NCBI GenBank assembly: GCA_038044745.1
Contig: JBBSZK010000002.1
Span: forward strand, 35,790-99,789
DNA from: Nanobdellota archaeon
Lineage (GTDB): Archaea > Nanobdellota > Nanobdellia > Pacearchaeales > GW2011-AR1
Direction: 5' to 3'
DNA: 64,000 nucleotides
Shown here: one piece after another, positions 22,948 through 59,221 of the stretch
How positions within the stretch are numbered: position 1 is the stretch's first letter
How the letters are laid out: the number at the start of each line of letters is the position of its first letter
Translations under genes and position numbers: made by a program
Notes under the pieces: generated by a model
What the model saw: only the letters and a program-made list of their open reading frames with translations
Told to the model about the DNA's origin: nothing
Databases searched by the model: none

Positions 22948-24294
22948 TCAAAGAGAGGCAATAGAATAGGCGCCTTCGCCCGGAACTTCAATGACTACAT
23001 TCTCCTGATCAAGCGCAGTACGATTAAAACAACCTGAACAAAAAACTCCGTTGCGCGTAATAAAAAGAGGAGATGTACCCAAAGAGAGATTATAGAAGGT
23101 TACAAGAGAAGGTGTATCGAAAAATGAATTTCGCGAGGCGTTGATAGAAACAAAGTTATGAAGAATAACAATTTCTTCCGACAAATTCAAACCGGTTCCT
23201 TTAACACCGTTATAGAAATAGACGGAGCCCAGGTTAGTGCGACTTAGGGTAAAGGTACTTAACTTGTCGAGAGTATACGGACCGATAGGGGTATCAACAA
23301 AAACATGGTTGTTGCTGCTTGCTAAAACCAAGGCCAAATCATTGAAATTGGTGGGCGTATCAACAAAACGAGTGCGAACCAACGTCAGATTAGAATTTCC
23401 AGAATCCGCAGAAAGGATTTGATTCGTAATCGGGGCAACAAAAGCCGAATCGATAAAGAGTGTATTTTTTACTCCAAACAATCTAACGGATGCTCCATTA
23501 TGAAAAGAAGTAAAGTTAACAAAAGAGTTATGTGTTCCTGAAGAAGGAAAGGTAATTCCCTTATCACCATTATTACGAGTAGTTACATCAACGAAGAAAT
23601 TATATGAGGGGGCAGGCTTACCAAATCCGTAGCCTTCATTTCCAATGAAAAACCCATCGTCTATATTGGAATCTGCAACAAGCCGCTCAAATCGATTGAA
23701 GGAGCTATTCCCTTGTATAACAACACCTTTCATACGATTATGTATCATCAGCCCTCCAGAAAACCGCGAAGAAAGAACTTCGGTTAAACGCAATCCAATT
23801 TGACACTCCTCCACCCTCGGATTGAGAATAACGGCCGAGTGAACCGCGTGTAGGTGGATACCTTCTTTACCACAGTCAAAAACCCGAACGTTAGACACCC
23901 GAGGTCGAGCAGCGTTAGAAATAACAATGCCTCTGCTTAACGAAGTCCCCTCGAAAGAAACCGTACAATTTCTCAAAGTAGTATCATTTTGGTTAGAGTA
24001 AATGCCGATACCTTCTGTCGAACCTAAAATAGTTCGATCCCGACAATCAAGCGTGACACGAGGGGCCGTAATGTTAATACAAACCGTGCCCGAATTGAAT
24101 AAAATATCCCGTTTCAAAGCATAATAAGCCCCCGATATATTTAATTCAGAACAGGACTCAAGATGGGAAAGCCTTAATGCAGGCATGTTTTGAGGCAACG
24201 TTTCAGGAGACGCGGAGGCAAAAAGAAAAAAGCCCAAAATCAAAAACGAAACAACAAGCAAAATTAGACCGTTACGCATACAATCAGGACTCAA
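22948..24294 (-). CDS. secreted right-handed beta-helix protein (pectate-lyase-like fold, PbH1 repeats), Cys-rich N-terminal region
   Basis: Signal peptide with ASA cleavage-site-like motif. Repeats such as GIVISNAARPRVSNVRVFDCGKEGIHLHAVHSAVILNPRVEECQIGLRL are typical of parallel beta-helix proteins. Confidence 0.6.
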   Translation of the reverse strand: MSPDCMRNGLILLVVSFLILGFFLFASASPETLPQNMPALRLSHLESCSELNISGAYYALKRDILFNSGTVCINITAPRVTLDCRDRTILGSTEGIGIYSNQNDTTLRNCTVSFEGTSLSRGIVISNAARPRVSNVRVFDCGKEGIHLHAVHSAVILNPRVEECQIGLRLTEVLSSRFSGGLMIHNRMKGVVIQGNSSFNRFERLVADSNIDDGFFIGNEGYGFGKPAPSYNFFVDVTTRNNGDKGITFPSSGTHNSFVNFTSFHNGASVRLFGVKNTLFIDSAFVAPITNQILSADSGNSNLTLVRTRFVDTPTNFNDLALVLASSNNHVFVDTPIGPYTLDKLSTFTLSRTNLGSVYFYNGVKGTGLNLSEEIVILHNFVSINASRNSFFDTPSLVTFYNLSLGTSPLFITRNGVFCSGCFNRTALDQENVVIEVPGEGAYSIASL

Positions 24295-27989: not shown

Positions 27990-28113
27990 GAGCCTATAGC
28001 TCAGCCCGGTTTAGAGCACCGCTCTTATAAGATACGCGCTCGTGAGGGCGCCATTTTCATCGAAAAAATTCGAAGAAAGGCGGGGGTCCCCGGTTCAAAT
28101 CCGGGTAGGCTCA
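27990..28113 (+). tRNA. tRNA-Ile (anticodon UAU) with ~48-nt intron (28030..28077) at the canonical 37/38 position
   Basis: Hand fold: acceptor GAGCCUA/UAGGCUC, D stem GCUC/GAGC, anticodon stem CCGCU/GGCGG, loop CUUAUAA, variable loop GGGUC, T arm CCCGG-UUCAAAU-CCGGG, discriminator A. No encoded CCA. Confidence 0.65.
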
Positions 28114-30163: not shown

Positions 30164-30290
30164 AGACGGCCCTCCAGAACAAAACCTTCTGCATAATCTT
30201 CGAAAATAGCCGCCTTTTTAACCCTTCCGTTTTGCAGGTGTTCCATGCAAATAGTAACGTTTAAAACCGCTTTTCAACTCGTTTCAAAAT

Positions 30291-30363
30291 GCCCTTGTAG
30301 TCTAGTGGCCAAGGACGTCGCCCTTTCGCGGCGAAAACCCGGGTTCAAATCCCGGCAGGGGCA
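30291..30363 (+). tRNA. tRNA-Glu (anticodon UUC)
   Basis: Hand fold: acceptor GCCCUUG/CAGGGGC (one G-U), D stem GUCU/AGGAC, anticodon stem UCGCC/GGCGA, loop CUUUCGC, T arm CCGGG-UUCAAAU-CCCGG, discriminator A. No encoded CCA. Confidence 0.8.
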
Positions 30364-30380
30364 TAAACCATTTTGGCATT
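30351..30380 (+). repeat. attL: 30-bp direct repeat (cccggcaggggcataaaccattttggcatt) overlapping the last 13 nt of tRNA-Glu
   Basis: Exact copy at 57948..57977. The flanking sequence diverges on both sides. Confidence 0.8.
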
Positions 30381-30445: not shown

Positions 30446-31594
30446 ATGAAGATAGACCCATATAATAACAAAGAAAGATACCTTGCATGGCAACAATCGA
30501 CTACCAAGGGTATTCCCAATATTTCAAGCCAAAACTCTGAGATCATACTTCACTATCTAGAAGATATGGAAAGAGGGCTGAATGTAGCAATTGGAAGCCC
30601 AAAGGGTGGCCGAAGTTACCATAGATTAAATTCTCTAAAGGAACGGATGATTTTCTTTGCCAGACAATTTGCAGAACGACACGGAACAATAAAGCTGACA
30701 GAGATTACAGAGGATCAAATGTTAAACTTCTTCTTTGACATGAGAAAAGGGATAGTGAAAAAGCAAGACGGAGGCACCTATAAATCGGTCGATACATACG
30801 CTCGCATTTTTAGAGCATTTTGGCATTGGCACCAAAAAACGAGCAAGAAGCAAGGAATAGAAATCTCAGATATAACGACAGACTTGGACACAAGTGAAGA
30901 AAAACCAGACTGGGTATATCTCACAGAAAAACAAGTAAAGACGCTTGCTGAAAGCGTAAAATTCGATCATAAGGTGCTTATCATGTTTCTTTTCGATTCG
31001 GGAATACGCGCACCAACAGAACTCATCAACGTAAAAGTGTCCGATCTACACAACAATTGCAAGGAGCTTAATATTAGACAAGAAGTAAGTAAAACCTTCG
31101 GCCGTAGGATTAAACTCCTCATCTGTTCGGAACTGCTAAAAGAATACATCGAAAATAACGCCCTTCGGCCAGACGATACTCTTTTCGACATAAGTCCGCC
31201 CGTGTTTAACCGGTTCCTCAAAAGAGCAGGGTTAAAATTGTTCGGCGATAAACCCAGTCCTGCAGGACAAAATTATTCCGAGCTTACTATGTACGATTTT
31301 CGACACTGTTCTTGCTGTTACTGGTTACCACGATATAAATCGGAATCTGCCCTCAAATACAGATTTGGCTGGAAAAAAAGCGAAAAGATTCATTACTACA
31401 GTGAATTGCTAGGTATGAAAGACACAATCTCCGAAGAAGACCTCCTAATAGACACAACAAAGATAGAAATCGAGCAAAGACTCGAACGCTCAGAAAAAGA
31501 AAAAGCCATTATGCAAGATAGGATTAAGACAATGGAGTTGCAAATGGTCAATATAATGGAACTTGTCAAGCAACTCGAGATGGCTCATAAATAG
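30446..31594 (+). CDS. int: tyrosine recombinase / integrase (phage-integrase family)
   Basis: C-terminal catalytic region FDSGIRAPTELINVKVSDL...MYDFRHCSCCYWL...KIHYYSELLG is consistent with the R..H-x-x-R..Y arrangement. Lies beside the tRNA att site. Confidence 0.75.
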   Translation: MKIDPYNNKERYLAWQQSTTKGIPNISSQNSEIILHYLEDMERGLNVAIGSPKGGRSYHRLNSLKERMIFFARQFAERHGTIKLTEITEDQMLNFFFDMRKGIVKKQDGGTYKSVDTYARIFRAFWHWHQKTSKKQGIEISDITTDLDTSEEKPDWVYLTEKQVKTLAESVKFDHKVLIMFLFDSGIRAPTELINVKVSDLHNNCKELNIRQEVSKTFGRRIKLLICSELLKEYIENNALRPDDTLFDISPPVFNRFLKRAGLKLFGDKPSPAGQNYSELTMYDFRHCSCCYWLPRYKSESALKYRFGWKKSEKIHYYSELLGMKDTISEEDLLIDTTKIEIEQRLERSEKEKAIMQDRIKTMELQMVNIMELVKQLEMAHK

Positions 31595-32901: not shown

Positions 32902-34017
32902 CTAATGATTTTCAATCAAAGAGACAAGAAGATTTATCTTCTCAAACAACTCATCAAAGGTAATTATCTCTATGTTGGACAACTCATTTCTAAAAATATC
33001 GAAGGACTTCATTTTTTCTAAATCGTTAAGTTCATCTATCGCGTTTCCGATAATTATGAATCCTCGTGGATTATAGGAATTAAATTTTGTATCTGAAGCT
33101 GCAGAGAGATTGTTAAACTCCTTAACTAAATCATCCCTCATCACACATACTTGAGTAACTGCTCCGCTAAGTTCCGGAGAGATGGAGTAGATATTATTTC
33201 TATATTTAGCTCCAATTATTTTAGCAACAGGGGTCTTTATTTCAACGATGCAGATGTTATTAGTTATTTTGTTTCTATAAAGAAAATCAGCATAATTTCC
33301 GCCTTGATTTTCTATCCCCTTTCCCCCAACATAGGCCTTATCTTTCAGAATAATATTTGGAGCAGGAGAAATATGTGAAAGAACCCAAGAATTATCTTTA
33401 AGGAGTGTCTGCCAGAATTCTTCTCTAGAATTATTCTTATTATTTTCCCATGCTTCAGTCATCCTCTTAAGAGAAGCTATATTCACCAGAGAAGAGAGTT
33501 TTTCTCCATCCTGGGTTGTTAGTTTCTTTATTGCCTGAACAAGAGCAGGAATATTGCTTGATTGGGCCACTCCAACAATAATTTCTTCTAATGTGGCAGA
33601 TCCACTTCTTTCGATTATTTTTCTGATTGCTTCACGATTCTTCAATAAATCATCTACGACCTCTCCGAGGTTCTCGTCAGTGATAGTTATCGTGTGTGTG
33701 CCCGATTTTATCCCCAATTTTTCGTAAATTTTATAACATTTATCCAACTCACTAATAAGAGTAAATAACTCTTCAGAGTGCAATTGCAATTGAGTCCATT
33801 CACCTGCCTTCAACTTATTTGCGTCAATATCTTTGTAATTTTCCCATTCTTCATTTTTACCTTTTCTTTGGAGGCGGAAAGTCCCTTTTACACTGGCCTT
33901 CGGATTCTTCTCGTTTTCTACGATAAGAGGATAAAATAAAAGTCGAGTCGTTGTTGTTTCTCGTAAGGTAATTGGGGGCGCTTCAGCAGAAGTTGAAGAT
34001 GTTGATTTGATTAGCAT
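32902..34017 (-). CDS. PD-(D/E)xK nuclease-fold protein downstream of res; possible Shedu-like (DUF4263-type) defense nuclease
   Basis: NYADFLYRNKITNNICIVEIKTP provides the D...ExK core. 371 aa. Co-oriented with and immediately downstream of the type III R-M. Confidence 0.4.
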   Translation of the reverse strand: MLIKSTSSTSAEAPPITLRETTTTRLLFYPLIVENEKNPKASVKGTFRLQRKGKNEEWENYKDIDANKLKAGEWTQLQLHSEELFTLISELDKCYKIYEKLGIKSGTHTITITDENLGEVVDDLLKNREAIRKIIERSGSATLEEIIVGVAQSSNIPALVQAIKKLTTQDGEKLSSLVNIASLKRMTEAWENNKNNSREEFWQTLLKDNSWVLSHISPAPNIILKDKAYVGGKGIENQGGNYADFLYRNKITNNICIVEIKTPVAKIIGAKYRNNIYSISPELSGAVTQVCVMRDDLVKEFNNLSAASDTKFNSYNPRGFIIIGNAIDELNDLEKMKSFDIFRNELSNIEIITFDELFEKINLLVSLIENH

Positions 34018-34079: not shown

Positions 34080-36266
34080 CTAAAACTCTAAGAACTTCCA
34101 GTCTTTACCTAAATTCGCTTCATTAAATTCGTACTTTTTACTATCATTGTAACGCCAACTGCCGTCCTTTGATACAGCTATTCCGCCCCATAATTTCTTG
34201 CCCTTTTTATTCTCTCTTTCAATGTAATGTGCTAAAGCCTCGGCCTTAGGTTTTGCGTCTTCGGCAGTCCTACCGGACTTCGTATCAAACAGCCCAACAC
34301 TTCCGTCTTTCATATAAACGATAAAGTCGACATAAAATGCCCTTTCAATACCATTTTCATCACTATACTTTACGGCAAACCATTTTATTTCGCTTTCTCC
34401 ATTTTTGAACCACCAAATCACCTTATTGCCTGCCTTTTCTAAAAGCTCGATGAATTCTTTTTCTGGTTTGCTACCTTCTTTTGCATATACGGGAACCATT
34501 ATGCTCTTCTTATAAGGCATTTTGACATATCTACTATTATGTTCGATCATTTCAGGAACCTCCCAAATGACAGGAACTTCTTCTCTCTGTTCTGCCAAAT
34601 TTTTGATAATTTTCTCAGTATATTCTTCTTTGGCCTTGTTGACTAAATCAAACAAGATTTGCCTATTTGCCTCACTTAATACTAACTTTTGTACATCGTC
34701 CCAATCTTCAACATCAACGACTTTTTCGAATAACTTGTATAACGCAGTCCTCATTACACCGCTCGAGTCTGCCGGGGCGAATGGAGTACATAGTTCTCGA
34801 AGAAGTAAATCAAAGCGATATTGTAGCTCTTTGGGAGTAAGATTGACCTTGATTCCTTCTTTATCTGACTTTACTATCTGCGCCTCATCTAGCTTAACGA
34901 TTTTACCATCGACCATTATACTCGCGATTAACTTGCCCCGATCTCTACTTATTTTTCTACCAAAATTTTGCTTTTTCCCTTCTTCTACTAATATTTTTGA
35001 AAATTCTCCCGAGAGCCTAGTCTTCTCTCTCTGTCTTTTCAAATAGATAGAATTTAGCTGAAGATTCTTATATATTACGTCATTTCTTTTTGATTCATAG
35101 ACAGTTAAGTAATCTTTGGCGATATCCTCAGCAATTTCTATGTTTGAAAGATTTGTATATACATATCCTCTGTTTAGCTTATCATTTTCATAATGTTTAA
35201 GTTCTGGCATTCGCATGATTCTTCCAACTGTCTGGATAGAGAAAACAAGGCTTTGCCATTCTCTAAACAACACCAGAATTTGAGCCCTTGGACAGTCCCA
35301 GCCTAGTGAAATAGCGTGCTTGAAGATAAGAACCTCAACATCGCTTTCATTTTTCTCTATATTTGCTAGATTAGGAGTCTTGTCTTCAGAAAGCCATCTC
35401 GCTAACTTGCCATTTTCTTCAGTTATCTTAAACTTATCTCGAAGTATTTGCTCTATATCGTCTTTCCTATCTATGACTCCAGTTTTTTTGTCAGGAAGTT
35501 GAATAAGGACTAAAGGGTTAATTTTTACCCCTTCTTTTGCGTAGGCCTTTAGAATTTCTTCGCGTTTCTTAAGTGCACACTCTAAAACTAGCTCGTCTGC
35601 ACTTTTCTTTATCTTTTCCTTATCAATTTCAGGATTTATTGAAACCTCTTTTTTGATCATTCCCTCCTCAATAACTTTTGCGAAATCAACCTCCACCATA
35701 TGACCCTCCAATTTTGGAGGTGTTGCAGTTACCTCGATAGCAACTTTGGGTGCGATCTCAGCAACAATTTCTTTCGATTTTTCACTCTTCGCAGTATGAT
35801 GGCTTTCATCAATTACAAGTATTATCTCTTGACCATCTTCTTTTGTATTTGCAATTACTGTGGAAAGGTTGTTGTCTTGTTCATTATCGCGAACATAGAG
35901 GTTTTCTTTTTTGTTGATACTTTCCCAATTGAAAAATAGAACTTCGTTCTCCCCTATTCTCTTATCTTCTAAATCTTCAAAGTCTGAGCATTTAATAATC
36001 CTAGAATCTTCAAAAAAACGGTCTAATTTTTCCTTGCTTTGTGTATGCAACTGACGAACCGAAATCCAGATAAAAGATAGGCGTTTGTTGTCAATTCTGT
36101 CAGTAACGAGTCTCTTTAACGCTTCAGCCATCATAATTGTCTTTCCGCTTCCTGTTGGAGCCTTGAAAACACAGACTTTGTTCTCCGAGAAATCAAGTAA
36201 TCGGTTCACGGTATCTCTTAATTCAGAAACCGCATCTTCTTGATAACCCTTTAATTCAATTATCAT
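34080..36266 (-). CDS. res: type III restriction enzyme, Res subunit (SF2 helicase + C-terminal nuclease domain)
   Basis: Walker A KAPTGSGKT, DEAH box VIDESHH, helicase motif VI QTVGRIMR. C-terminal FYVDFIVYMKDGSVGLFDTKSG is a PD-ExK-like nuclease block. 4-nt overlap with mod. Confidence 0.85.
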   Translation of the reverse strand: MIIELKGYQEDAVSELRDTVNRLLDFSENKVCVFKAPTGSGKTIMMAEALKRLVTDRIDNKRLSFIWISVRQLHTQSKEKLDRFFEDSRIIKCSDFEDLEDKRIGENEVLFFNWESINKKENLYVRDNEQDNNLSTVIANTKEDGQEIILVIDESHHTAKSEKSKEIVAEIAPKVAIEVTATPPKLEGHMVEVDFAKVIEEGMIKKEVSINPEIDKEKIKKSADELVLECALKKREEILKAYAKEGVKINPLVLIQLPDKKTGVIDRKDDIEQILRDKFKITEENGKLARWLSEDKTPNLANIEKNESDVEVLIFKHAISLGWDCPRAQILVLFREWQSLVFSIQTVGRIMRMPELKHYENDKLNRGYVYTNLSNIEIAEDIAKDYLTVYESKRNDVIYKNLQLNSIYLKRQREKTRLSGEFSKILVEEGKKQNFGRKISRDRGKLIASIMVDGKIVKLDEAQIVKSDKEGIKVNLTPKELQYRFDLLLRELCTPFAPADSSGVMRTALYKLFEKVVDVEDWDDVQKLVLSEANRQILFDLVNKAKEEYTEKIIKNLAEQREEVPVIWEVPEMIEHNSRYVKMPYKKSIMVPVYAKEGSKPEKEFIELLEKAGNKVIWWFKNGESEIKWFAVKYSDENGIERAFYVDFIVYMKDGSVGLFDTKSGRTAEDAKPKAEALAHYIERENKKGKKLWGGIAVSKDGSWRYNDSKKYEFNEANLGKDWKFLEF

Positions 36267-38008
36267 TTGAATATTCTCCTATACACATGAAGTATAACCT
36301 CAGGTATTGGGCACAATTTTGCTTTATTCTTAAGCTCTTTGAATTCCTTTTCGGGAACCTTCCCGTCTAATGAAAAGACGTAAACATGGATTTTTTTATC
36401 AAGCTTTTTAGCTTCCTTAACAAAGTCCTCAATAGAATCTTCATCAAACACAATACCCAAATAATAATTATGGTTCTTGAATATCTTCCATTCCCTCTTA
36501 CCCTTGACCGGAATGAATGCGTTTTCTTTAATGCAAATCATCTCTGTAGACTTATCCACAATTTTCTTTTTGTTTTTATCGGTAGGCGCTGAATCGACAA
36601 AGTCTGTCTTAAAGTATTTGAGATTTCCTCCGAGCCCTTCAACTCCCTCTTGACCTGAACTTTTGTACCCTTTGATGACTTTATTAATACGAGGGTAACA
36701 AACCTCTGTGCAGATATTATTTTCATTATTTGTGCATAAAATAAACCTTCGGCTTCCTCCGTCTTCCTTGTTTAAATCAAGGACTGCGTGGCCTGTTGTT
36801 CCAGAACCTGCAAAAAAGTCTAAAACTAAACCATTTTTTGTTGAACAATATCTTATCAGATCTTTAATCAAATAATGGGACTTGGGGCTATCGAATTTTT
36901 TCATCCCATCAAATAACTCTCTTAGAACAGTCGTAGCCGTGTCAGTTGAGTAATCACTATCAATAAGAAAAGATTTCATCTTCAATTTCTTCTCTTCGCC
37001 ATTTTTAAAAAGATAATCTTTCTGGAAAACATCCCATTCATTCCTACCAGAAACTATCTTAGCAACTAGTTCGATTGAACGAACAGTTACAGCCTTCTTT
37101 TCCCATCGCCAACAACCTTCATTACCATTCGACAACTTTGGAGTCACTTCGATATTATGAGTTTTTGTTTTTTCAACAGAAACAGTTTTTCCAACAGGGT
37201 CAATGTAAATTGGATAGAACAAATTCGGTCTATCTTTTCTTCGACTATTGGACCCCCTCTTTCTTAATCCTTGTAACCTATATTTGCCATTTTGGTCTTC
37301 TAAATTATATTCATCCAGAGACTCTGGAGTCATAGGAAGGCCATTTATCTCTGCCGAGGCAGTCTTTCTGTAAAAAAGAAGATATTCATGGGCTGTTGCA
37401 ACATACTTTTTATCGCTTCTTCCCGCAAGATTATTTACTAAACACACATTGGATATAAAGTTATTTCCACCAAAAATCTCGTCACATAAAATTCTCAGCT
37501 GAGCTTGTTCATTGTCATCGATAGAAATGACTATTAGGCCCCCATCTTTTAGAAGTTCTCTGGCAAGTTTAATTCTCTTTTCCATAAACGAGAGCCATTT
37601 ACTATGTCTATAAGCATCTTCTAAATCAACATATTGGTCATTGTATTTGAAATCTTTATTTCCAGTATTATATGGTGGATCGATATAAATAACATCAATT
37701 GATTTGTTATGAGTAAAGTTAAGGGCAGCTAAAGAATGATAGTTATCCCCTTCAATCAGTAAATTAAAATCTTTTTCTTTATCAGTTATAATCTCTTTAT
37801 CACTAACTTCTTTTAATACGGGCAGTTTGTGTTCCGTTCCAGGAAACTTCTCCTCTGTCTTTTGGCCATCCCAATTTATGTAGTAATCAAAAGCCTCTTT
37901 CGTTTTATCTTTTTCCCACACAAGCCCATAAGTCTTTTGTTTTCTTAATGCTTCAACCTCCTTGATTAAATCATCTTTAGACCAGCCAGACAAATCCCTT
38001 TTCACCAT
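36263..38008 (-). CDS. mod: type III R-M Mod subunit (beta-class N6-adenine DNA methyltransferase)
   Basis: Motif IV VIYIDPPYNTG precedes motif I VLDFFAGSGTTGHA, the beta-class order. 581 aa. Confidence 0.85.
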   Translation of the reverse strand: MVKRDLSGWSKDDLIKEVEALRKQKTYGLVWEKDKTKEAFDYYINWDGQKTEEKFPGTEHKLPVLKEVSDKEIITDKEKDFNLLIEGDNYHSLAALNFTHNKSIDVIYIDPPYNTGNKDFKYNDQYVDLEDAYRHSKWLSFMEKRIKLARELLKDGGLIVISIDDNEQAQLRILCDEIFGGNNFISNVCLVNNLAGRSDKKYVATAHEYLLFYRKTASAEINGLPMTPESLDEYNLEDQNGKYRLQGLRKRGSNSRRKDRPNLFYPIYIDPVGKTVSVEKTKTHNIEVTPKLSNGNEGCWRWEKKAVTVRSIELVAKIVSGRNEWDVFQKDYLFKNGEEKKLKMKSFLIDSDYSTDTATTVLRELFDGMKKFDSPKSHYLIKDLIRYCSTKNGLVLDFFAGSGTTGHAVLDLNKEDGGSRRFILCTNNENNICTEVCYPRINKVIKGYKSSGQEGVEGLGGNLKYFKTDFVDSAPTDKNKKKIVDKSTEMICIKENAFIPVKGKREWKIFKNHNYYLGIVFDEDSIEDFVKEAKKLDKKIHVYVFSLDGKVPEKEFKELKNKAKLCPIPEVILHVYRRIFK

Positions 38009-38395: not shown

Positions 38396-38935
38396 TTATT
38401 TTACAAAGTTTACTTTACCTGTTGCAATATCGCATAACCAGACGTCGTTTCTAATCTTATCTCGTGATATTCCCATCTTTTCAAGCATCTGAGCGAGTGC
38501 TTCTTTCTTTTCAGCTATTTGCGATTCTTCACCATCAGTCTCGATTTCGATGAAATTTCCAATATCCTTTACTTCATCTAACGTGATGCTAAACTCGCCA
38601 AGCTTGAAAGTCTCTCGCTTTTTGTCGATAACTCCTAAAAGAGGAAAGTTAAGTCCATTTAGAATCTGTTTAAAGACTTCAAGGTTATCAACTGCTGTTT
38701 CGTATTCTTTTGTAACACCATCCGCAATATTGACATGATATGCAAATACACCTGTATTTTCGTTTGGTTTATACCTGAGACGAATATACTCTTTGGTTTT
38801 TCGCGTATCTCGTTGAGGATGATTGTAATATTCATCAATCTGATGCTTTTGTTTTTCTTCTTTAGCTCCTAACTTCTTAAGTTCTGCTTTGACTTTCTGC
38901 TTGTCTTCAAAGGTTGCTTTGATTTCAATTTCCAT
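38396..38935 (-). CDS. CYTH-domain protein (class IV adenylyl cyclase / triphosphate tunnel metalloenzyme family)
   Basis: N-terminal MEIEIKATF is the ExExK signature. 179 aa, a typical size for CyaB-like CYTH proteins. Confidence 0.7.
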   Translation of the reverse strand: MEIEIKATFEDKQKVKAELKKLGAKEEKQKHQIDEYYNHPQRDTRKTKEYIRLRYKPNENTGVFAYHVNIADGVTKEYETAVDNLEVFKQILNGLNFPLLGVIDKKRETFKLGEFSITLDEVKDIGNFIEIETDGEESQIAEKKEALAQMLEKMGISRDKIRNDVWLCDIATGKVNFVK

Positions 38936-38958: not shown

Positions 38959-40410
38959 CTATGCTCCATTGACCGTAAGTTGCATATGGCGCGTTGCACG
39001 TCTATGCGAAGGTCTATGACATGTCGATTCTGTTCTAATGACTTGAATATCATTACGTTGATCTTTATCTATAATTTCCTCTAGATATAATGGATCAATG
39101 GCAGGATTGACCTCTTGCATGCCTATTGCTTCTGCAATATGATGATAGTGATCAACCATTAATCTAACTCCATTTCGACCTAAGCTAGTAGGTGTAGCAA
39201 CTGGTTGTTTATGTGTGTATCTATTATAATCTGCTGAAAGTACACGTAATTCTCCTGCCATGTTACGTTCAAATCCGCTTCCTGGGTGAGGGGTAATAAA
39301 CGAGATATAGGTAATAACGCCAGGCAATCTTCCTGTTTCTTCAATAAATACTGCGTTTTCAGCAAGTGTTTCTGGAGTTTCGCCTGGATATCCAAACATA
39401 TACACAGGATTGACTTTACATCCACTCTCTAATAGAACGTCAAATGCTCCGCGAATGGTACGTGCTTTAACGCCCTTGTCCATAGCATCAAGCATGGCTT
39501 GAGAGACTGATTCTACGCCAGTATGGATTGTATCAACTCCTGCTGCGACCATTTGCCTTATAAGGTCTGGCTTTATGCCATCAATGCGCGATTTAGCCTT
39601 ATAGTTTAACCCTAAGTTAGCTTGTTCAATAGCTCCAAAAAGCTCAGCACACCATTTTCCATTTAAGGTAATTGTTTCGTCTTTGAAGTGTACTCGCTTA
39701 AATCCAAATCCATTAAGCATTTCAAGTTCAGCTAAAATATTTTCAATAGAACGCCTGCGATAGCGATATTCCCATAGTTCATTGAGCGTGCAGTGATCGC
39801 AAGCCATTGGACAACCACGCGCTGCATATATTCCTGCAGGCGACATCTTAGCATATTCTTCAACTGGTACCAAATCATAGGCAGGCAGGGGGATTGTGTC
39901 TAAGTCTTTGATAAGTTCCTTATCGGGCATGCGCACAATATTATCTCCATCCCTAAACGCAACTCCCTTTAGATCTGTTTTATTTAAAGTACCTTCAGCA
40001 ACTCGTAAGACTTTGGACAATCCCTCTTCTCCTTCCCCAAATATTACATAATCAATTGCTCCAGTTCGCAAAACAACATCCGCGTTAAACGTAGGATATA
40101 ATCCGCCCATGACAGTTATTTTGCCCATTTCTTTAGCTTTTCGCAAGATAGCTAACGAATCTGGAGATTCAGCTGTACATGCTCCAATTCCTACCACATC
40201 AGAATCTCTAAGGTCTTGTTCAAGGTTGCGAGGAATGCCGAGAGCCTTGTTAAGTCGATAGTCTATAACTCTCACATGAGTTCCATTTCGATCTTGAACA
40301 TAGCCTGCAAGGTACAAAAGACCTAACGGAATGCCGACGTCTCCTGCGTATCCTTGTTTCTTAACTGGGAACTTAATTTCAGGCTTAATGAGAGTCAATT
40401 TAGCTGTCAT
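38959..40410 (-). CDS. B12-binding radical SAM enzyme (class B radical SAM)
   Basis: N-terminal cobalamin-binding-like Rossmann segment (DVVGIGACTAESPDS...ITVMGG). CxxxCxxC cluster ARGCPMACDHC. 483 aa. Confidence 0.75.
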   Translation of the reverse strand: MTAKLTLIKPEIKFPVKKQGYAGDVGIPLGLLYLAGYVQDRNGTHVRVIDYRLNKALGIPRNLEQDLRDSDVVGIGACTAESPDSLAILRKAKEMGKITVMGGLYPTFNADVVLRTGAIDYVIFGEGEEGLSKVLRVAEGTLNKTDLKGVAFRDGDNIVRMPDKELIKDLDTIPLPAYDLVPVEEYAKMSPAGIYAARGCPMACDHCTLNELWEYRYRRRSIENILAELEMLNGFGFKRVHFKDETITLNGKWCAELFGAIEQANLGLNYKAKSRIDGIKPDLIRQMVAAGVDTIHTGVESVSQAMLDAMDKGVKARTIRGAFDVLLESGCKVNPVYMFGYPGETPETLAENAVFIEETGRLPGVITYISFITPHPGSGFERNMAGELRVLSADYNRYTHKQPVATPTSLGRNGVRLMVDHYHHIAEAIGMQEVNPAIDPLYLEEIIDKDQRNDIQVIRTESTCHRPSHRRATRHMQLTVNGA

Positions 40411-40501: not shown

Positions 40502-41746
40502 ATGGAAGAAAAAACCTTTGCAATATACCCTAGCGATAAGAAAGATTATGACCTAAAGATCGTTCCAGACATAGCAGACGGCAAGTTGTTAACAGTTTTT
40601 TGTTCTTTTACTTTCATTACTCCAAACTATTCTATTCTTTTTACTTTAGAGCAATTGAGAAAATTTGCCAGCTCGGGCAATTATCAAGTGCATATTGTGC
40701 TGTGGGATATGAATATCTTAGCTAATCCTTACTTCGAAAAACTCTATTCCCTTAAGAAAATTGCTCATCCCTCTTCTTTTATTGATGATAAAGTTCAAGA
40801 GATAAAGGCTATCACCAGCTCTATGGGTTTTAATAAAGAAAAAGTATTAGTTTACAAATCTTCAGATTTATGGAAACGCCTTATTTCCTATAAAGATGAT
40901 GATCTATTCCAGGAGTTTTATTCTATTCTGGCTCAAATGAAGACTACGAGTTTTCATGTTTCAGGCGATAAGATATCTCACATGATCCAAATCCCTATGG
41001 ACATTTTCTTTTGCAACCATTTCCATAAATTGTATCCAGAAGACGTTGAACGTCCTATTGATTTAGTCTTTTTCGGAGAAAATAAAGAAGAGCTTTATCT
41101 GGCTTGTAGGGAACTTATGATTTCCAAGCGTATTGTCCAACATAAAAACCCTCTGTTTATTCTCATGAAGAATATACCTTATTTGCTGTTCAATAACATT
41201 ACTCCCGAATGGAATATGAGCTTAAGAGAAATTAAAGACATTGTTGTGGGATGCAATCCTTCCAAAAAGGACTTATTCACTCTTCTTAGTCATCTTGATG
41301 AAATTTCAGGTTTTGTTCGTATAAAGAAAAAAGGATATAATCAGGATTTAGAATATTCTTCTTTTTACAAAGAATATAAGAATATTTTAACAGAAGAATT
41401 ATTCCAAATTCTGGCAGATAATCTCTATCTTTTCTTTCAAGATAGAAAGAAGAAGTATCTGAAGGCTACTGGGGAGATTGAAGAAACAATTCTTAACCTC
41501 TCAAAAAAGAATGATGTCCAAGAAATGGGTTCGATATTGAAGAGCACGATTGCATTAGATATCCTTCTGAAAGCAGATGGGACTCGCACAACTACAGATA
41601 TAGCCAAGGAATTGAATAAGTCTATCGCTACTATAAGCACCTATGCTAATGATCTTAAGAAGATGAAGCTTATTCGGGTTTTGCCTGAAGGCAAGCTTAA
41701 AAGAAATATTAAAGGTGTGAAGATTAATCTAGAACTGGGAATTTAG
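40502..41746 (+). CDS. hypothetical protein with C-terminal winged-helix HTH; N-terminal domain weakly resembles a degenerate class I aaRS (TrpRS/TyrRS-like) Rossmann fold
   Basis: C-terminal TTDIAKELNKSIATISTYANDLKKMKLIRV is a wHTH. N-terminal LLTVFCSFTFITPNYSILFTLEQL...HIVLWDMNILANP has the pattern of the TrpRS HIGH region but lacks HIGH. Confidence 0.35.
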   Translation: MEEKTFAIYPSDKKDYDLKIVPDIADGKLLTVFCSFTFITPNYSILFTLEQLRKFASSGNYQVHIVLWDMNILANPYFEKLYSLKKIAHPSSFIDDKVQEIKAITSSMGFNKEKVLVYKSSDLWKRLISYKDDDLFQEFYSILAQMKTTSFHVSGDKISHMIQIPMDIFFCNHFHKLYPEDVERPIDLVFFGENKEELYLACRELMISKRIVQHKNPLFILMKNIPYLLFNNITPEWNMSLREIKDIVVGCNPSKKDLFTLLSHLDEISGFVRIKKKGYNQDLEYSSFYKEYKNILTEELFQILADNLYLFFQDRKKKYLKATGEIEETILNLSKKNDVQEMGSILKSTIALDILLKADGTRTTTDIAKELNKSIATISTYANDLKKMKLIRVLPEGKLKRNIKGVKINLELGI

Positions 41747-41927
41747 TTTATGGGTTTTGGATAGGATAAAGATTGGTTTTGTGATGAGATCTATCAAATT
41801 GCTGATGAGAACAAGGACTATTTACCATTGTCTAAGATTCAGTTAAAATCTTTAGCTAATTAAACGAAGTAACGGTTATCGATAAGTGAGGGATAGATTT
41901 ATATAACTCTGTTATGTATGAAAATTA

Positions 41928-43358
41928 ATGGGTGATAAGGCATTATTTATCTTATCTCTAGTTTTTTTTGCGGTCTTATTATCTTCTTTGCATTTTTCAT
42001 CAGCTATTGAAATTGAATACAACCTTACTTACGATGCAAACGGTAACCTCATACAAGGTTTCGATAAGTATTTTGAATATGACGGTTTAAACAGATTGAC
42101 TGAAGTAAGAGAAAGCGATGAGAATGGAGTTCTTCTAGAACAATATTTTTATGATTCAGTTGGAAATCGTATCAAAAAAATAACCTATAATGGCGCGCAA
42201 AACGAAACTACTTACTATATTGATAAAAATTTTGTTCAAGTTGTAAACAGTTCAGGCACCTTTAACTATACTTACTATTATGCTGACGGCCTACTATTAG
42301 CTGCTAAAGACCCTTCTGGAAAAAAGCAATTCTATCATCCAGATCATCTAGGAAGTACGAACCTTATAACCAATGAATCAGGACAAATAATAGAGAACAC
42401 AATTTACTCTCCTTACGGAGAAGTAACTGACGAGGGACAAGAAAGCCGTTATCTTTTTACAGGCAAGGAGTTTGACCGCAGTACCGATTTATATTATTAT
42501 GGCGCTCGATATTATGATCCTATTACTAATCATTTTATCCAACCAGATTCTCAGATTCAAGACGTATACAATCCGCAAGACCTAAATCGATATTCTTATG
42601 CTCGTAATAACCCGTATAGATATACCGACCCTTCTGGAAATGCGGTTAATCTTGTTACAGGAGCCATTGGAGCTACTATAGGTGGTGGAGCTTCATTTAT
42701 CATCTCAGTTATATCTCAGTATTCTTCAACAGGACAAGTCAATTGGGCTGACGCAGGCAAAGATACTGCTGCAGGTTTAGTTGCAGGAGGAGTAAGCGGT
42801 CTAACATTTGGTGCTGGTGCTGTTTTGTTGGGGGGAGAGCTATCTTCTGGTTCGATAATGATTCTTATGGGTGCCTCGGGATCCCTTGGATCAGGGGTAG
42901 GACAAATAACATCGAACTTACTTTATGATAGAGCGATTACAGATAATGTACCGCAAGCCGCTATTGCAGGCGGAGCTTTATCAGTAGCAACTGCAGGAGC
43001 AGTTAAAGGTGGGTCTTCTATACTTAAATCACTAAATATAAATTCAGGATTTAATAAATTAAATTTTGCTAGTAAAGAAGCTCTTATTAAACATTTTGAG
43101 TCGCATGGAAACGATTTTGGTTTTACTTCATCCAATCAATATTTAAAAGCAAGTCAGAATTTCTTGGCTGGAAAAGCAGGAAAAGGGGTTTTGGAATATA
43201 CTCGACCAATCGGTGATGTTGTAAGATATAATCCTCAAACAAATGAGTTTGGAGTTAAAACTGCTCAAGGGACTATAAGAACTTACTTTAAACCTACGGA
43301 AGGAGCAAGATACTATGCAAGCGATAAAGCCAATTACTTACCGGAGGTAGATGAATGA
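41928..43358 (+). CDS. secreted RHS/YD-repeat protein with RHS repeat-associated core and C-terminal polymorphic toxin domain (type unassigned)
   Basis: Signal peptide MGDKALFILSLVFFAVLLSSLHFSSA. YD repeats (YFYDSVGNRIKKITYNG). RHS core hallmark YYGARYYDPITNHFIQPD ... NPYRYTDPSGN. C-terminus has Gly-zipper GAIGATIGGGASFIISVIS and a ~150-aa unique tail. Confidence 0.75.
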   Translation: MGDKALFILSLVFFAVLLSSLHFSSAIEIEYNLTYDANGNLIQGFDKYFEYDGLNRLTEVRESDENGVLLEQYFYDSVGNRIKKITYNGAQNETTYYIDKNFVQVVNSSGTFNYTYYYADGLLLAAKDPSGKKQFYHPDHLGSTNLITNESGQIIENTIYSPYGEVTDEGQESRYLFTGKEFDRSTDLYYYGARYYDPITNHFIQPDSQIQDVYNPQDLNRYSYARNNPYRYTDPSGNAVNLVTGAIGATIGGGASFIISVISQYSSTGQVNWADAGKDTAAGLVAGGVSGLTFGAGAVLLGGELSSGSIMILMGASGSLGSGVGQITSNLLYDRAITDNVPQAAIAGGALSVATAGAVKGGSSILKSLNINSGFNKLNFASKEALIKHFESHGNDFGFTSSNQYLKASQNFLAGKAGKGVLEYTRPIGDVVRYNPQTNEFGVKTAQGTIRTYFKPTEGARYYASDKANYLPEVDE

Positions 43359-43786
43359 GCAGTAGAAGAAAAGAAACAATTAAACATGATGAAAGCCCTG
43401 TAAGAAAAATAGTACAAGACTCTAAAAGAGAAAAGTATAACAAATTTTTAAGCTTAAAGGCCGCCCTACATTATAAAGATGCTTATCTCGTTATGGAAGG
43501 AGATTGTGGAGGACAGATTTATTTAACTGTTCCAGTAAAATTTGTAAAATGTAATGAAAAAACCCTTAGAAGTCTTTTGAATGAAATAGATTCTTTGGCT
43601 TGGAAAGACCCAGAATGCGCAGGTTTTTATTTTGAAAGAAGACCTAAAGGAGAGATTCTTATAGGCGGTATGGGGGGAGGAAAGATTCAAGACGATCTAT
43701 GGGTGCATAAAGAACTTGAATATCTCAAGGAAAAAATAAGATTAATTTTGAAAGGAAAGGTTAACGCAGATGATTTGATAAAATGA
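43355..43786 (+). CDS. putative cognate immunity protein of the RHS toxin
   Basis: 143-aa ORF whose start overlaps the toxin stop (ATGA). This is the canonical position for polymorphic-toxin immunity genes. No known motif. Confidence 0.45.
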   Translation: MSSRRKETIKHDESPVRKIVQDSKREKYNKFLSLKAALHYKDAYLVMEGDCGGQIYLTVPVKFVKCNEKTLRSLLNEIDSLAWKDPECAGFYFERRPKGEILIGGMGGGKIQDDLWVHKELEYLKEKIRLILKGKVNADDLIK

Positions 43787-46700
43787 GAAGAAAATCTAAA
43801 ATTGTAATAACCTTGGTCTTTTTTATTTGTCTTGTAATTATTGCCATGTCATCGGTAAAGGCAATAGGCCCTTTACCAATCTATCTACAAGACCCTATTG
43901 TTCCTGATTCTCCCTTATCACTTCAAAGCAGGTCAGAGACAGACGTATACACAGGAGCATTTACTCAGAATTTCCCTATTCAATTACCTCTAGGTACCAA
44001 TGGGTTAAAACCCTCTTTATCTTTATATTATAATAGTCATATGTTTGATTCTCCAAGACAGAGTTTGATAGGTAATGGTTGGGATGTACAGTTAAATTAT
44101 ATAGAAAGAAGAACTAATTACACTGCTTCTAATATTTCGGACGATTACTACGTTATTGTTTTTAACGGAATCAAAGAAGAGAATTTAATTTACGACCCAG
44201 TTCAAAGATCGTATGAGACAAAAATAAGGAACTTTTTTTATATTTCTAATTTAAGTGGAGGACAAGGCACGGGAGGTTTATATTGGACAGTAAAAACTGG
44301 GGACGGATCTATATATAGATTCGGTTATTGGAATAATTCTTTATTGAAGGCTGGACTTTATAACTATACATCACGATGGTATCTTGATTTAGTTAATGAC
44401 ACCTATGGAAACCAAATTTTTTACAATTATAGCATTAACCCTTATGCAAATGATAGTTCTGCAGTTTATCCACTTTCAATAGAATATAATAACGATAGAC
44501 AGAGAAAAATAGAATTTGTTCTAACTTCAGTAGATAGAATCGATAAGAAGACTCAATATATAGAAGGTAGTTTTATCAGATTAAGTCGAGCAATAAAAGA
44601 AGTTAGGATTTTAGCTAATGGTTCTCTTGTCAGAAAGTATGATTTGGGATACAACGGTACAGATTATCGAAATCTTTTAATAAATTTAACTGAATTTGGT
44701 TCAAATAACTCTCTTTCATTAAGCCCAATATCTTTTAATTATTCATCATCTTCTAAGAATTTTACCAACATAAATTCTCAGTGGTCTATTCCTTCGGGGG
44801 TATTCTTTCATATAGGTTGGACTAATGGGGGGAGTGATACGGGTGTTCGCTTGGCCGATATCAATAGAGACGGCAAGGTAGATTTATTAAAGGCCTATTG
44901 TAATTCTAACACCTATTCGTGCTATCAAAATCCAAATCAAATAGATAGAGCAGTGTGGTTGAATAATGGAAGCGGGTGGACAAGCTCAAATCTTCAATTG
45001 CCACCTATTCCTTTTGGTGTTAGCTATAATTGGGACAGCGGAGCAAGAATTATAGATATAAACGGAGATGGTTTTACAGACATAGTACAAACTTGGATAG
45101 ATGATCAGGATCCGAATAAAGTTATAAGAGAAACGTGGTTAAATAATGGTACGGCTTTCATAAATAATACTAACTGGAGTATTGAATCCGACATTTTCTT
45201 TCACATGGGATGGGTTGATGGAGGGAGTGATACTGGAATAAGAATTGCAGATTTAAACGGAGACTCGTTACCTGACCTAGCAAAAAGTTATTGTAACAAC
45301 CCGCCGTGGTTATGTTCAAATCCTGAAAGAAAGGTATGGATTAATACTGGAAAGGGTTGGAGAAATGACTCTGGAATTTCCTTACCGCCGGTCACTTTCA
45401 GAGTTAGTAATCACGCAGAACCTGGCACATTCATAAATGATTTAAATGGAGATGGACTAGCAGATGTTGTTCAATATTGGAGGCAAGATGATTTCTCTTC
45501 GGATCAACCAACACAATTAAGTGTGTGGTTAAATAATGGAAGCGGATTTAACAATTTTACCTCTAATTGGAGCATGCCTTCAGAAGCATTCTACGTAGGA
45601 TATACTAATGGAGGTATGGATAACGGTGTTCGTTTAATAGACATAAATGGAGACAATCTTATTGATGTCATCCAAGCGAGATGTTACTCTAATACTCGAG
45701 GGTGTTATGATTCACCAGGGCTTATTCAAAAAAATGTTTGGTTAAATAATGGAAAAGGGTGGGTTCTAGACCAAAACTGGAGTCTGCCTGATCCAATTGC
45801 CTTAATTAACAATTATAACTGGGATCCTGGTACAAGAATGGCAGATATCAACGGGGATGGGATTACCGATTTTATACAGCTATGGCAGGACGGGTCTGAT
45901 GAAATTAAAGATATTTGGATAAATAATGGTCAAAAAGGATATATTCTTCAGTCAGTTAAAAATCAATTTGGAGGTATTACTCGCGCCTCGTACAAACAGT
46001 CAACTCTTCTAAATAATACAGGCGTAGACACTTTAAATGATATTGGTTTCAATTTGTGGGTAGTTGAAAATATAAGCAAGGACAATGGATTAAACACTTC
46101 GCATAAGGTTATACAGGTTGCTCGATATAATTATGTGGGAGCATTATACGAATATCCTACAAAAGAATACAGAGGGTTTGCATATAGTCGTGAGAATTTA
46201 AGTGAAGGAATAATCAAAGAACATTATTTTCTACAAGAAGAAGGCAACAGAGGTCAAGAATATCTCATTAAATTAAGTAACAAAAGCGGTTCGTTGTACA
46301 CAACCATTTATAGAGATTGGAAATTATCTTTTAGCAATGGTTTATATAAGCTAGAATTAAAAAACATAACTGAACTAGTTTATGATGGTTTGGCAATTAA
46401 CCCTCGTCCACGCCTTACTGTTTTTAATTATGATCAATTTGGGAATATAATAGTAAAACAACTATTGGGAGATCCTCAAAACTTAGAAGATGATACATAT
46501 GAATATTTTGAATATGCTACAAATAATAGTACATGGATAATCAATAAAGTTAAAAATTATACTTTGTACGGGAGCGATAACCAAACCAAGTTTAGACAAA
46601 CGCTTTATTATTATGATAATTTAGTATATGGTGGCTCTCCAACTAAAGGAAGTATCACGAAGAAAGAGGAATGGTTAAGCGGAGGAACAAATCCTTTAAC

Positions 46701-56962: not shown

Positions 56963-57571
56963 TTGTCCCCGACTCGTTATAAGGTTATTTTGATGGGAGA
57001 ATTCATGAAACAAAAACCATTTTCATGGAAATTTGATATACGGAAAAAGTATAGTATCATCTACGCTGACCCTCCGTGGAAATATAATACAAAAGTCAAT
57101 TACCCCACCGTTCCCATTAGAGATATTCAGAAATTCCCTATTGATCAAATTGCAGATGATAACTGCGCCTTGTTTCTCTGGGCCACCTATGCTATTCTAC
57201 CTGAATGCATAGAAACTCTCAAAAAATGGGGATTCAGATACGTTACCGTTGCATTCACGTGGGTCAAGACCAATAAAAATGACGGCAGGCCATTTTTTGG
57301 GCTAGGAGCATGGACACGAGCCAATGCAGAAGTCTGCTTATTAGGATTAAAGGGAAATGTAAAGCGAGAATCCTCAAAAGTAAAGCAAGTGGTTCTCTCC
57401 CCCTTACGCGAACACAGCCGTAAGCCTGATGAAATTCGTGATAGTATTGTAGAATTATTGGGAGACTTACCCCGTATTGAATTATTTGCTCGCCAAACCG
57501 TAAGGGGCTGGGATTGTTGGGGTAACGAAACTAAAAAATTCAACAAGGAGACTCATGGAAAGCACCATTGA
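56963..57571 (+). CDS. MT-A70-family N6-adenine DNA methyltransferase (orphan; start more likely ATG at 57005)
   Basis: YSIIYADPPWKY carries the DPPW motif. GGGAGA SD-like sequence lies upstream of the 57005 ATG. No adjacent restriction gene. Confidence 0.7.
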   Translation: MSPTRYKVILMGEFMKQKPFSWKFDIRKKYSIIYADPPWKYNTKVNYPTVPIRDIQKFPIDQIADDNCALFLWATYAILPECIETLKKWGFRYVTVAFTWVKTNKNDGRPFFGLGAWTRANAEVCLLGLKGNVKRESSKVKQVVLSPLREHSRKPDEIRDSIVELLGDLPRIELFARQTVRGWDCWGNETKKFNKETHGKHH

Positions 57572-57828: not shown

Positions 57829-57850
57829 AGAACAAATGCCAAAGACGCTT

Positions 57851-57877
57851 AAACTCGATCTCGACAATCTTTATAAA
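57851..57877 (+). repeat. copy 1 of ~25-nt repeat AAACTC-N-ATCTCGACAATC(T/C)TTA-AAA
   Basis: aaactcgatctcgacaatctttataaa. Related copies at 58621..58637 and 59195..59221. Confidence 0.5.
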
Positions 57878-57947: not shown

Positions 57948-57977
57948 CCCGGCAGGGGCATAAACCATTTTGGCATT
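57948..57977 (+). repeat. attR: second copy of the 30-bp direct repeat; preceded by the 11-bp inverted-repeat arm tgccaaaatgg (57931..57941), complementary to ccattttggca inside the repeat
   Basis: Exact match to 30351..30380. Confidence 0.8.
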
Positions 57978-58620: not shown

Positions 58621-58637
58621 TATCTCGACAATCCTTA
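58621..58637 (+). repeat. copy 2 of the repeat (tatctcgacaatcctta) between the two convergent TA cassettes
   Basis: 17-nt exact match to 59201..59217. Confidence 0.5.
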
Positions 58638-59152: not shown

Positions 59153-59194
59153 AGTAAGATATATCTTACCCGCGTATATAAATCTTCCGTTCTT

Positions 59195-59221
59195 AAACTC
59201 TATCTCGACAATCCTTAAAAA
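59195..59221 (+). repeat. copy 3 of the repeat (aaactctatctcgacaatccttaaaaa), upstream of the AbrB antitoxin gene
   Basis: See copies 1 and 2. Confidence 0.5.

Follow-up and report, generated by a model that had tools for sequence, protein, structure and literature searches.

A probable two-piece RHS encapsulation toxin of the TcB/TcC type on an integrated element of a DPANN archaeon

A stretch of 64,000 nucleotides from a Nanobdellota archaeon (GenBank assembly GCA_038044745.1, contig JBBSZK010000002.1, positions 35,790 to 99,789 of the forward strand) was analyzed; this whole stretch is referred to as the window. It includes an integrated element of this DPANN archaeon, and a region on this element probably codes for an RHS encapsulation toxin of the TcB/TcC ('BC') type that consists of two pieces. 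The larger piece, termed B, combines a TcB-like head with a YD-repeat shell that has no RHS core. The smaller piece, termed mini-C, provides the RHS core and a variable C-terminal toxin. In single-chain homologues the mini-C region directly continues the B region.

The initial annotation of this DNA had placed three open reading frames (ORFs) on the + strand, at 41928–43358 (476 aa), 43355–43786 (143 aa) and 43783–49521 (1912 aa), which agrees with the ORF listing. Its three-gene layout holds as far as it goes. A fourth coupled member, a 516-aa ORF at 49521–51071 on the same strand, had been overlooked and extends the unit. Consecutive genes overlap by 4, 4 and 1 nt, and the four genes thus form one tightly coupled unit, an operon spanning 41928–51071. 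Its features are as follows.

41899..41907, + strand: TATA-box-like element TTTATATAA, read off the sequence, about 21–29 nt 5' of the ATG of the first gene
41928..43358, + strand: mini-C subunit, 476 aa, with signal peptide, YD repeats, RHS core, hydrophobic Gly-rich region and toxin
41928..42005, + strand: Sec-type signal peptide of mini-C, residues 1–26 (...HFSSA/IEIEYN), a hydrophobic N-terminus
42006..42641, + strand: terminal YD repeats and RHS repeat-associated core of mini-C, residues 27–238 (TIGR03696)
42642..43034, + strand: post-core Gly/Ala/Ser-rich hydrophobic region of mini-C, residues 239–369, with three to four transmembrane-like stretches
43035..43355, + strand: C-terminal toxin domain of mini-C, residues 370–476, colicin-D-like (BECR fold)
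43355..43786, + strand: 143-aa cytoplasmic ORF, presumed immunity protein; no signal peptide, 4-nt overlap on each side
43783..49521, + strand: B subunit, 1912 aa, with TcB-like head, YD shell without RHS core and lectin/immunoglobulin (Ig) tail
43864..44799, + strand: SpvB-type N-terminal domain of B, residues ~28–339, after the signal peptide (PF03534)
44800..45942, + strand: six-bladed FG-GAP beta-propeller of B, residues ~340–720 (FG-GAP_3/FG-GAP matches and blade motifs)
45832..48312, + strand: TcdB mid-N domain (residues 684–810) and YD-repeat shell of B to about residue 1510 (...HAP) (PF12256, RHS_repeat)
48595..49092, + strand: LamG (concanavalin-like lectin) domain of B, residues 1605–1770 (PF13385)
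49093..49518, + strand: beta-rich Ig/PKD-like C-terminal tail of B, residues 1771–1912 (sub-threshold I-set, PKD and Big_13 matches)
49521..51071, + strand: 516-aa secreted accessory protein, predicted carbohydrate-binding beta-sandwich

The element TTTATATAA is a candidate promoter of the operon. We take it to be an archaeal TATA box by the archaeal TATA consensus; the mRNA would then be leaderless or have a short leader. Scans for sigma-70 promoters and for terminators 3' of the operon gave matches at chance level only.

B, mini-C and their fused homologues

The domain composition of B had been recognized in the initial annotation as an SpvB domain, six FG-GAP blades, a run of YD repeats and a LamG end without RHS core. 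Pfam and motif scans agree with this description. B starts with its own signal peptide (residues 1–27). The SpvB domain was matched at residues 57–223 (E 4.6e-11, 42.9 bits, cut-off 22); it is detectable only in a separate scan of the N-terminal 339 aa and was missed in the whole-protein Pfam scan. Exactly six D-x-N-x-D-x-x-x-D and six W-x-N-x-G motifs, spaced by ~65 aa between residues 359 and 716, mark the blades of the propeller. Further Pfam matches are FG-GAP_3 (PF13517, E 2.2e-14), TcdB_toxin_midN (PF12256, E 1.1e-17), RHS_repeat (E 4.8e-29) and Laminin_G_3 (PF13385, residues 1605–1770, E 1.4e-26). The latter resembles the LamG domain of pappalysin. The YD shell comprises ~700 aa. The TcdB mid/C domain (PF12255) has no Pfam match in B at E ≤ 0.01, and generic RHS/YD-shell matches are located there. 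No RHS core was found in B by Pfam, NCBIfam or own-profile scans.

Relatives of B number in the hundreds (1480–2200 aa) and are found in DPANN lineages, in the candidate phyla radiation (CPR) and in some other bacteria. Their first ~1510 residues are conserved, followed by variable C-terminal ends with LamG, beta-helix, dockerin or Ig modules. Family conservation of B accordingly ends at about residue 1510, where the LamG/Ig tail is present instead of an RHS core. Positions 8–1485 of our own B profile (bigN) correspond to B residues 5–1510.

The RHS core is encoded separately in mini-C, just upstream of B, as had been annotated. TIGR03696 (Rhs_assc_core) matches residues 160–237 with E 4e-20 and 72 bits (cut-off 32.5), and the motifs YYGARYYDP and DPSGN are both present. 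The profile searches thus support all five assignments made initially (SpvB, FG-GAP, RHS_repeat, RHS core and Laminin_G_3). The residues R194, D207, D234 and G237 are 99–100% conserved among 117 sequences. By comparison with TcC, we take R194 to be the autoprotease arginine, D207 and D234 to be the two aspartates and G237 to belong to the DPxG motif. The core of mini-C is predicted to form an aspartyl-autoprotease plug, and proteolysis is predicted likewise. In a PDB search, residues 30–237 of mini-C align to solved structures of Rhs effectors, teneurins and TcC, where they cover the ~200 residues that precede the cleavage site.

The relation of the two proteins was analyzed in 76 loci, which were fetched with an alignment of B and whose ORFs were scanned with three own profiles (B residues 1–1510, mini-C residues 27–240 and the 516-aa protein). 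These loci contain 58 complete B genes, 20 fused to a mini-C region and 38 core-less. A separate core gene lies on the same strand within 5 kb in 32 of the 38 core-less cases; the six exceptions are mostly located near contig ends. Where this gene is downstream of B, it overlaps the stop codon of B in 12 of 19 cases, which corresponds to the order of tcB and tcC. Twelve pairs of small and big proteins are located on one contig. Three further annotated genomes contain the pair of B and mini-C, one of them among housekeeping genes.

The fused forms define how the two pieces belong together. The mini-C region is part of the same chain in 48 of 120 B-family proteins. In fused proteins from bacteria and CPR, only 2–13 residues separate the end of the B profile from the start of the mini-C profile. 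Archaeal fused forms have inserts of 60–170 aa at this junction, and the split forms break at the same point. A neighbour-joining tree of 51 B proteins requires at least eight changes between fused and split states. The direct contiguity in the fused homologues identifies mini-C as the end of an otherwise continuous RHS shell that has been split off together with the plug. The PDB alignments agree with mini-C as the terminal shell segment.

Homologues of both B and mini-C are present by the hundreds in Pacearchaeota, Woesearchaeota, Nanoarchaeota, Micrarchaeota and Altiarchaeota, several of them in ordinary chromosomal contexts. The split layout is common in DPANN archaea, and the initial view of a rare system has to be given up. 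Split B and mini-C were also observed in a few bacteria including CPR, namely in a deltaproteobacterium (locus L037), in Roizmanbacteria (L043) and in an uncultured bacterium (L034). The split arrangement is therefore not strictly archaeal, with examples in ultra-small bacteria, and it may have moved between these and DPANN archaea.

Mini-C has ~600 homologues, mostly of 410–500 aa and mostly from Woesearchaeota, Pacearchaeota and Nanoarchaeota. Their C-terminal toxin Pfams include barnase, Tox-REase-9, Ntox35/47 and a ParB-type nuclease. Among 103 short full-length members (median 445 aa, post-core tail ~205 aa), 84 have a signal-peptide-like N-terminus, and the YD/core profile begins at about residue 28. 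The possibility that mini-C is a pseudogene fragment of a longer intact gene was rejected, as relatives have the same short, signal-peptide-bearing architecture.

Additional core fragments and toxin cassettes are found between or after mini-C and B in loci L084 (2080–2754), L009 (18269–25588) and L005 (13541–17731). One cassette of these arrays is colicin-E3-like ('Cytotoxic'). Some array members have no signal peptide and thus correspond to the orphan cassettes known from enterobacterial Rhs loci.

Cargo region, downstream ORF and lectin modules

The stretch of mini-C after the core comprises 239 aa and consists of two parts, a conserved hydrophobic region (residues 239–369) and a variable toxin (residues 370–476, ~107 aa). 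The initial annotation had assigned ~230 aa to a variable C-terminal toxin tip. Its variability is borne out, and its extent has to be reduced to the last ~107 aa, the remainder being the conserved hydrophobic module. This module contains 20% Gly and has hydrophobic windows at residues 239–265, 280–317 and 341–359. In the mini-C family, 72 of 117 members have a hydrophobic post-core stretch. The best PDB match of mini-C is the mosquito protein SGS1 (8FJP, E 1e-16), and the phmmer alignment begins in the last YD repeats, passes the core and reaches residue 339 of mini-C, within the hydrophobic region. The cryo-electron microscopy structure of SGS1 shows a post-core region of ~230 aa that, after autocleavage, is enclosed by the shell as a series of 'daisy-chained' helices predicted to be transmembrane (PMC9935623). 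By analogy, residues 239–369 of mini-C are proposed to be an encapsulated membrane-insertion module.

The toxin tip has no match in Pfam (E up to 10), NCBIfam or PHROGs and was identified only by PDB sequence, profile and fold searches. Residues 370–476 match CdiA-CT of E. coli O32:H37 (PDB 8EY4) by sequence with E 7e-13. A profile of the tip family matches colicin D (1V74, 1TFO, 1TFK and 5ZNM) with E ~0.006. The AlphaFold (AF2) model of the tip has a pLDDT of 91.8, and Foldseek retrieved 8EY4 with a TM-score of 0.86 and colicin D with a probability of 1.00 and a TM-score of ~0.6. In 20 aligned tip sequences H389, H393, R426, D430 and T452 are invariant, and position 396 is acidic (D/E) in 19. 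The colicin D motif was defined as Hxx[ED] together with a conserved [ST] (Zhang 2012, PMC3482391). H393-G-N-D396 of the tip fits the first part and T452 corresponds to the second. The tip-domain family comprises 2857 representative clusters and is nearly always C-terminal, with a median of 0 residues after it. Sequence and model thus suggest a colicin-D-like tRNase, for which tRNA cleavage is predicted.

The closest relative, locus L083, has the same four-gene order, with B 77% and the 516-aa protein 75% identical. Mini-C of both loci is ~85% identical up to residue ~365 and unrelated thereafter. The ORF 3' of the toxin is also unrelated (107 aa in L083, 143 aa in the window). The tip and the next ORF have been replaced together, which is a signature of polymorphic toxins. 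In locus L003, a mini-C with a barnase tip is followed by Barstar.

A tightly coupled immunity ORF had been postulated downstream of the toxin. The coupling is confirmed by the 4-nt overlaps. For an immunity function the databases give no match: the 143-aa ORF was not matched in Pfam, NCBIfam, PHROGs or the PDB, where the search returned noise, and it is not ImmD-like. Its presumed role as immunity protein rests on its position and its co-replacement with the toxin.

In two other loci the same colicin-D-like tip is followed by homologous ~95-aa zinc-ribbon (CPxCG) ORFs (L084 1578–1877, L087 2850–3128). The two ORFs share 48% identity and have no relation to the 143-aa ORF of the window; they represent a second candidate immunity family.

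The 516-aa protein has no match in Pfam (E up to 10), NCBIfam or PHROGs and is predicted to be a secreted glycan binder. In other loci its module is fused to mini-C proteins. The LamG domain, too, is fused to the N-terminus of mini-C or encoded just 5' of B elsewhere. LamG and the 516-aa module are located either at the C-terminus of B or at the N-terminus of mini-C, i.e. at the junction of the two pieces. This clustering of lectin-type modules at the B/C junction suggests target binding without TcA.

A conserved LamG/Ig protein of ~400–650 aa is encoded directly 5' of B in 14 loci (L003 1379–3298, L031 1320–2705, L027 7687–9974 and 11 more). In eight loci it is preceded by an Ig-like protein of ~210–355 aa. 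Neither protein is present in the window.

Proposed mechanism and rival explanations

For the two-piece toxin the following mechanism is proposed. Once both proteins have been exported by the Sec route, the shell of B, open at its C-terminal edge, would be docked by the N-terminal strand of mature mini-C. A single cocoon would thereby be completed and plugged, with the hydrophobic helices and the unfolded toxin sheltered inside, and the core would cleave directly behind DPSG. Attachment of the particle to glycans of the target surface may be provided by the LamG/Ig tail of B together with the 516-aa protein, both taking the receptor-binding role of TcA. The Gly-rich helices would bring the tRNase into the target cell by inserting into its membrane, and cleavage of tRNA there would stop translation. 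The producer and its kin would be protected by the 143-aa cytoplasmic protein, which would neutralise the toxin. The system probably serves antagonism between archaea, directed against competitors or against the host of this episymbiont. A more far-reaching version is put forward tentatively. B may be a reusable lectin-tailed shell that is closed outside the cell by exchangeable ~45-kDa 'cartridges', each providing lid, plug, insertion helices and toxin, for TcA-independent, contact- or glycan-targeted delivery against the host or rivals.

Several points weigh against a two-piece toxin. The physical complex of B and mini-C, like expression, toxicity and target, is predicted from the genes. Both proteins have signal peptides, and a joint cocoon would have to enclose ~240 aa of cargo outside the cell. 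We know of no precedent for the extracellular assembly of a cocoon around its cargo. In loci L003 and L047, a fused B with its own core is followed by extra mini-C genes with signal peptides; at these loci mini-C may not need a free shell, or may pair with another B. The propeller is retained without a known partner, TcA being absent. The Ig/PKD-like nature of the B tail is suggested by sub-threshold matches, which are weak evidence. Furthermore, no homologue of the 143-aa ORF was found beside related toxins in four other loci. The ORFs 3' of this toxin family fall into at least three unrelated families and thus give no independent support for an immunity role.

Some of these points would be expected if mini-C were a self-sufficient Sec-secreted toxin, with the YD/core part as pro-domain and autoprotease, and B a separate surface adhesin for cell–cell attachment, with a lectin tail and an empty or open shell, both being mere neighbours in a surface or conflict island. 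Each protein has its own signal peptide, additional signal-peptide-bearing mini-C genes accompany fused B proteins with their own core, and for a few core-less B genes the available flanking sequence contains no core gene. Moreover, a role in attachment has been proposed for giant DPANN surface proteins that contain BC-like and LamG domains (PMC6642349). This explanation is nevertheless unlikely. It does not account for the mini-C profile continuing the B profile at a distance of 2–13 residues in single-chain homologues, for fission or fusion having recurred at least eight times or for the overlap of stop and start codons in 12 loci. The YD repeats of mini-C match only the last ~200 residues of a cocoon and should not close a shell by themselves. 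The 130-aa hydrophobic region would be exposed, and B would be left without a plug of its own. If B and mini-C do act independently, the finding shrinks to an ordinary polymorphic toxin beside an adhesin.

The small gene could also belong to a reservoir of orphan rhs-CT/immunity cassettes, as in enterobacterial Rhs loci; it would then serve recombination with a full-length RHS gene and not work as a subunit itself. Arrays of core fragments with toxin and immunity genes are found in the relatives L005, L009, L084 and L085, some members lacking a signal peptide or the N-terminus, and toxin tips are exchanged by recombination. In the window, on the other hand, mini-C is the first gene of the operon with its own ATG, signal peptide and TATA-like box, and the adjacent B has no core with which to recombine. 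The short architecture with signal peptide is kept in at least 84 family members, and the closest relative L083 has the same intact layout, which makes a mere cassette reservoir very improbable. The least probable explanation is a non-toxic, teneurin-like or symbiotic role, in which the cocoon delivers or displays a hydrophobic host anchor and the nuclease-like tip is vestigial. DPANN archaea are episymbionts, and YD shells, lectin domains and SGS1-like regions serve non-killing interactions in eukaryotic homologues. A vestigial tip is at odds with the colicin D catalytic motif, which is intact and conserved in the 20 aligned tip sequences, with the exchange of tip and downstream ORF as a pair and with the combination of barnase and Barstar in sister loci.

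Known systems and genomic setting

The closest comparison to the proposed two-piece toxin is TcB–TcC (TcdB2–TccC3, 4O9X; YenB–YenC2, 4IGL). B shares with TcB the SpvB domain, the FG-GAP propeller, the mid-N domain and the RHS shell. In both systems the aspartyl-protease plug formed by the core and the variable toxin at the C-terminus come from a second polypeptide. Bacteria are well known to have TcB and TcC as pairs or as fusions (PMC7861908), and fused B–C genes as well as several C genes per B likewise occur in the family of the window proteins. Differences are the archaeal host, the Sec signal peptides on both subunits, the LamG/Ig tail of B, the immunity-type ORF and the absence of TcA. 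As had been annotated, no TcA-like channel is present: no TcA-family Pfam match was found in the scanned ORFs of the window or in annotated relatives.

Mini-C is also much smaller than TcC. While 97% of TcC proteins have 851–1050 aa, with a shell of ~650–680 aa preceding a hypervariable toxin region of 200–400 aa (PMC7861908), mini-C has 476 aa with ~210 aa of shell and core. Its 239 aa after the core are within the size range of the hypervariable region. In the PDB alignments to TccC3 and YenC2, mini-C matches no more than the ~100 residues that precede the cleavage site. In phmmer searches TcdB2 was not reached with B, and mini-C reaches TccC3 over the core only.

The likeness to Tc toxins noted initially is borne out by the TcB-type head of SpvB, FG-GAP and mid-N domains; that to teneurins reduces to the common YD-shell fold. 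The transmembrane anchor, EGF repeats, NHL propeller, FN-plug and Tox-GHH domain of teneurins have no counterpart in the window proteins, and only the YD-shell/core segment is shared. A closer relation exists to the 'TcdB/TcaC-class' RHS toxins. These are single chains with signal peptide, SpvB domain, integrin-like propeller, RHS repeats and toxin, accompanied by an immunity gene, with few euryarchaeal or archaeal examples (PMC3482391). The order of domains, the toxin logic and the Tox-ColicinD tip are the same as in the window, where the protein is split into two ORFs. The window system differs by the break at a fixed point, the signal peptide of mini-C, the lectin modules at the break and a far wider distribution in DPANN archaea.

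SGS1 (8FJP) likewise has a Tc-like shell with lectin and carbohydrate-binding-module domains and no TcA. It is a single eukaryotic chain of 3364 aa, has no immunity gene and ends with Tox-SGS instead of a nuclease. Colicin D and CdiA-CT (1V74, 1TFO, 8EY4) resemble residues 370–476 of mini-C in sequence and predicted fold, with H393-x-x-D396 corresponding to H611/D614. They differ in that the toxin of the window is attached to an RHS carrier and the adjacent ORF is not ImmD-like. The SPEARE proteins of Nanohaloarchaeota (PMC6642349), which were compared by description only, combine BC-toxin-like and laminin-G domains in a DPANN surface protein. They are single membrane proteins of 3,300–8,500 aa with protease and restriction-enzyme domains and without separate core, toxin and immunity genes. 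In full-text searches of the literature for RHS, YD, SpvB, Tc-toxin or teneurin proteins of DPANN archaea, no description was found of the fixed-point split into a lectin-tailed shell and a secreted mini-C of ~445 aa or of its prevalence in DPANN archaea; a 2019 survey of archaeal polymorphic toxins lies outside that coverage.

Weapons for interactions of DPANN archaea are almost unknown, though these cells live attached to others. Judging from this locus and its many relatives, RHS toxins with interchangeable warheads and antidotes that can be recognised as such appear to be widespread in DPANN archaea. If the two-piece toxin is real, the ~210 residues of a separate chain that suffice to complete the cocoon would show how small the cargo-bearing part of an RHS/Tc capsule can be. 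One would then have to ask how the cargo gets into the cocoon after secretion and leaves it without the help of TcA. Both aspects are relevant for the re-engineering of Tc cocoons for protein delivery. With exchangeable cartridges, as tentatively put forward above, the system would provide the first known example of an injection-free Tc-like cocoon whose assembly in trans needs only a minimal C fragment.

The operon is located on a mobile element integrated at a tRNA gene, with tRNA, repeats, integrase and atypical composition all present. This agrees with the initial assignment to an archaeal mobile element. The element has a length of 27.6 kb and is bordered by perfect 30-nt direct repeats; the G+C content changes from ~0.44 outside to ~0.35 inside. 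Borders and further genes are as follows.

30290..30380, + strand: tRNA-Glu with attL, left border (30-nt repeat 30351–30380, overlapping the 3' end of the tRNA)
30446..31594, + strand: tyrosine integrase (phrog_1 integrase, E 3.2e-15)
32902–34017: Shedu SduA
34080–38008: DEAD/ResIII helicase and N6_N4 methylase
38396–38935: CYTH
38959–40410: B12-radical SAM enzyme
51456–53702: VirB4
53671–54513: PrgI-like protein
56963–57571: MT-A70
57948..57977, + strand: attR, perfect copy of the 30-nt repeat, right border

The genes for VirB4 and the PrgI-like protein suggest a conjugative type. The element looks like an archaeal integrative, possibly conjugative, island of defence and antagonism. TrbC and MT-A70 are also found beside the cassette in locus L083; other relatives are chromosomal. 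Directly 5' of the operon, a 414-aa protein is encoded (40502–41746, + strand). It has a C-terminal winged helix with weak Csa3/MsvR-like matches, and its N-terminal 340 aa are unmatched. This protein is a possible regulator of the operon.

The contig is also deposited in the ENA, from a 0.1-µm-filter assembly of Hainich groundwater. NCBI lists B and mini-C under 'Nanoarchaeota archaeon'. Kae1, a YGR210-type GTPase and a probable intron-containing tRNA, all encoded in the window, fit an archaeon. An Rfam tRNA match of 124 nt (27990–28113, + strand) was missed by ARAGORN and is probably an intron-containing archaeal tRNA. Outside the element, a 2267-aa ORF with a single LamG domain (15970–22773, − strand) lies beside a beta-helix protein (22948–24294) and unmatched ORFs. 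This is possibly another surface or adhesion locus of a DPANN archaeon. Finally, the 17-nt motif TATCTCGACAATCCTTA occurs three times beside and outside attR, at 57848–57877, 58621–58637 and 59192–59221. One copy is 88% identical, and two copies have 30-nt flanks.

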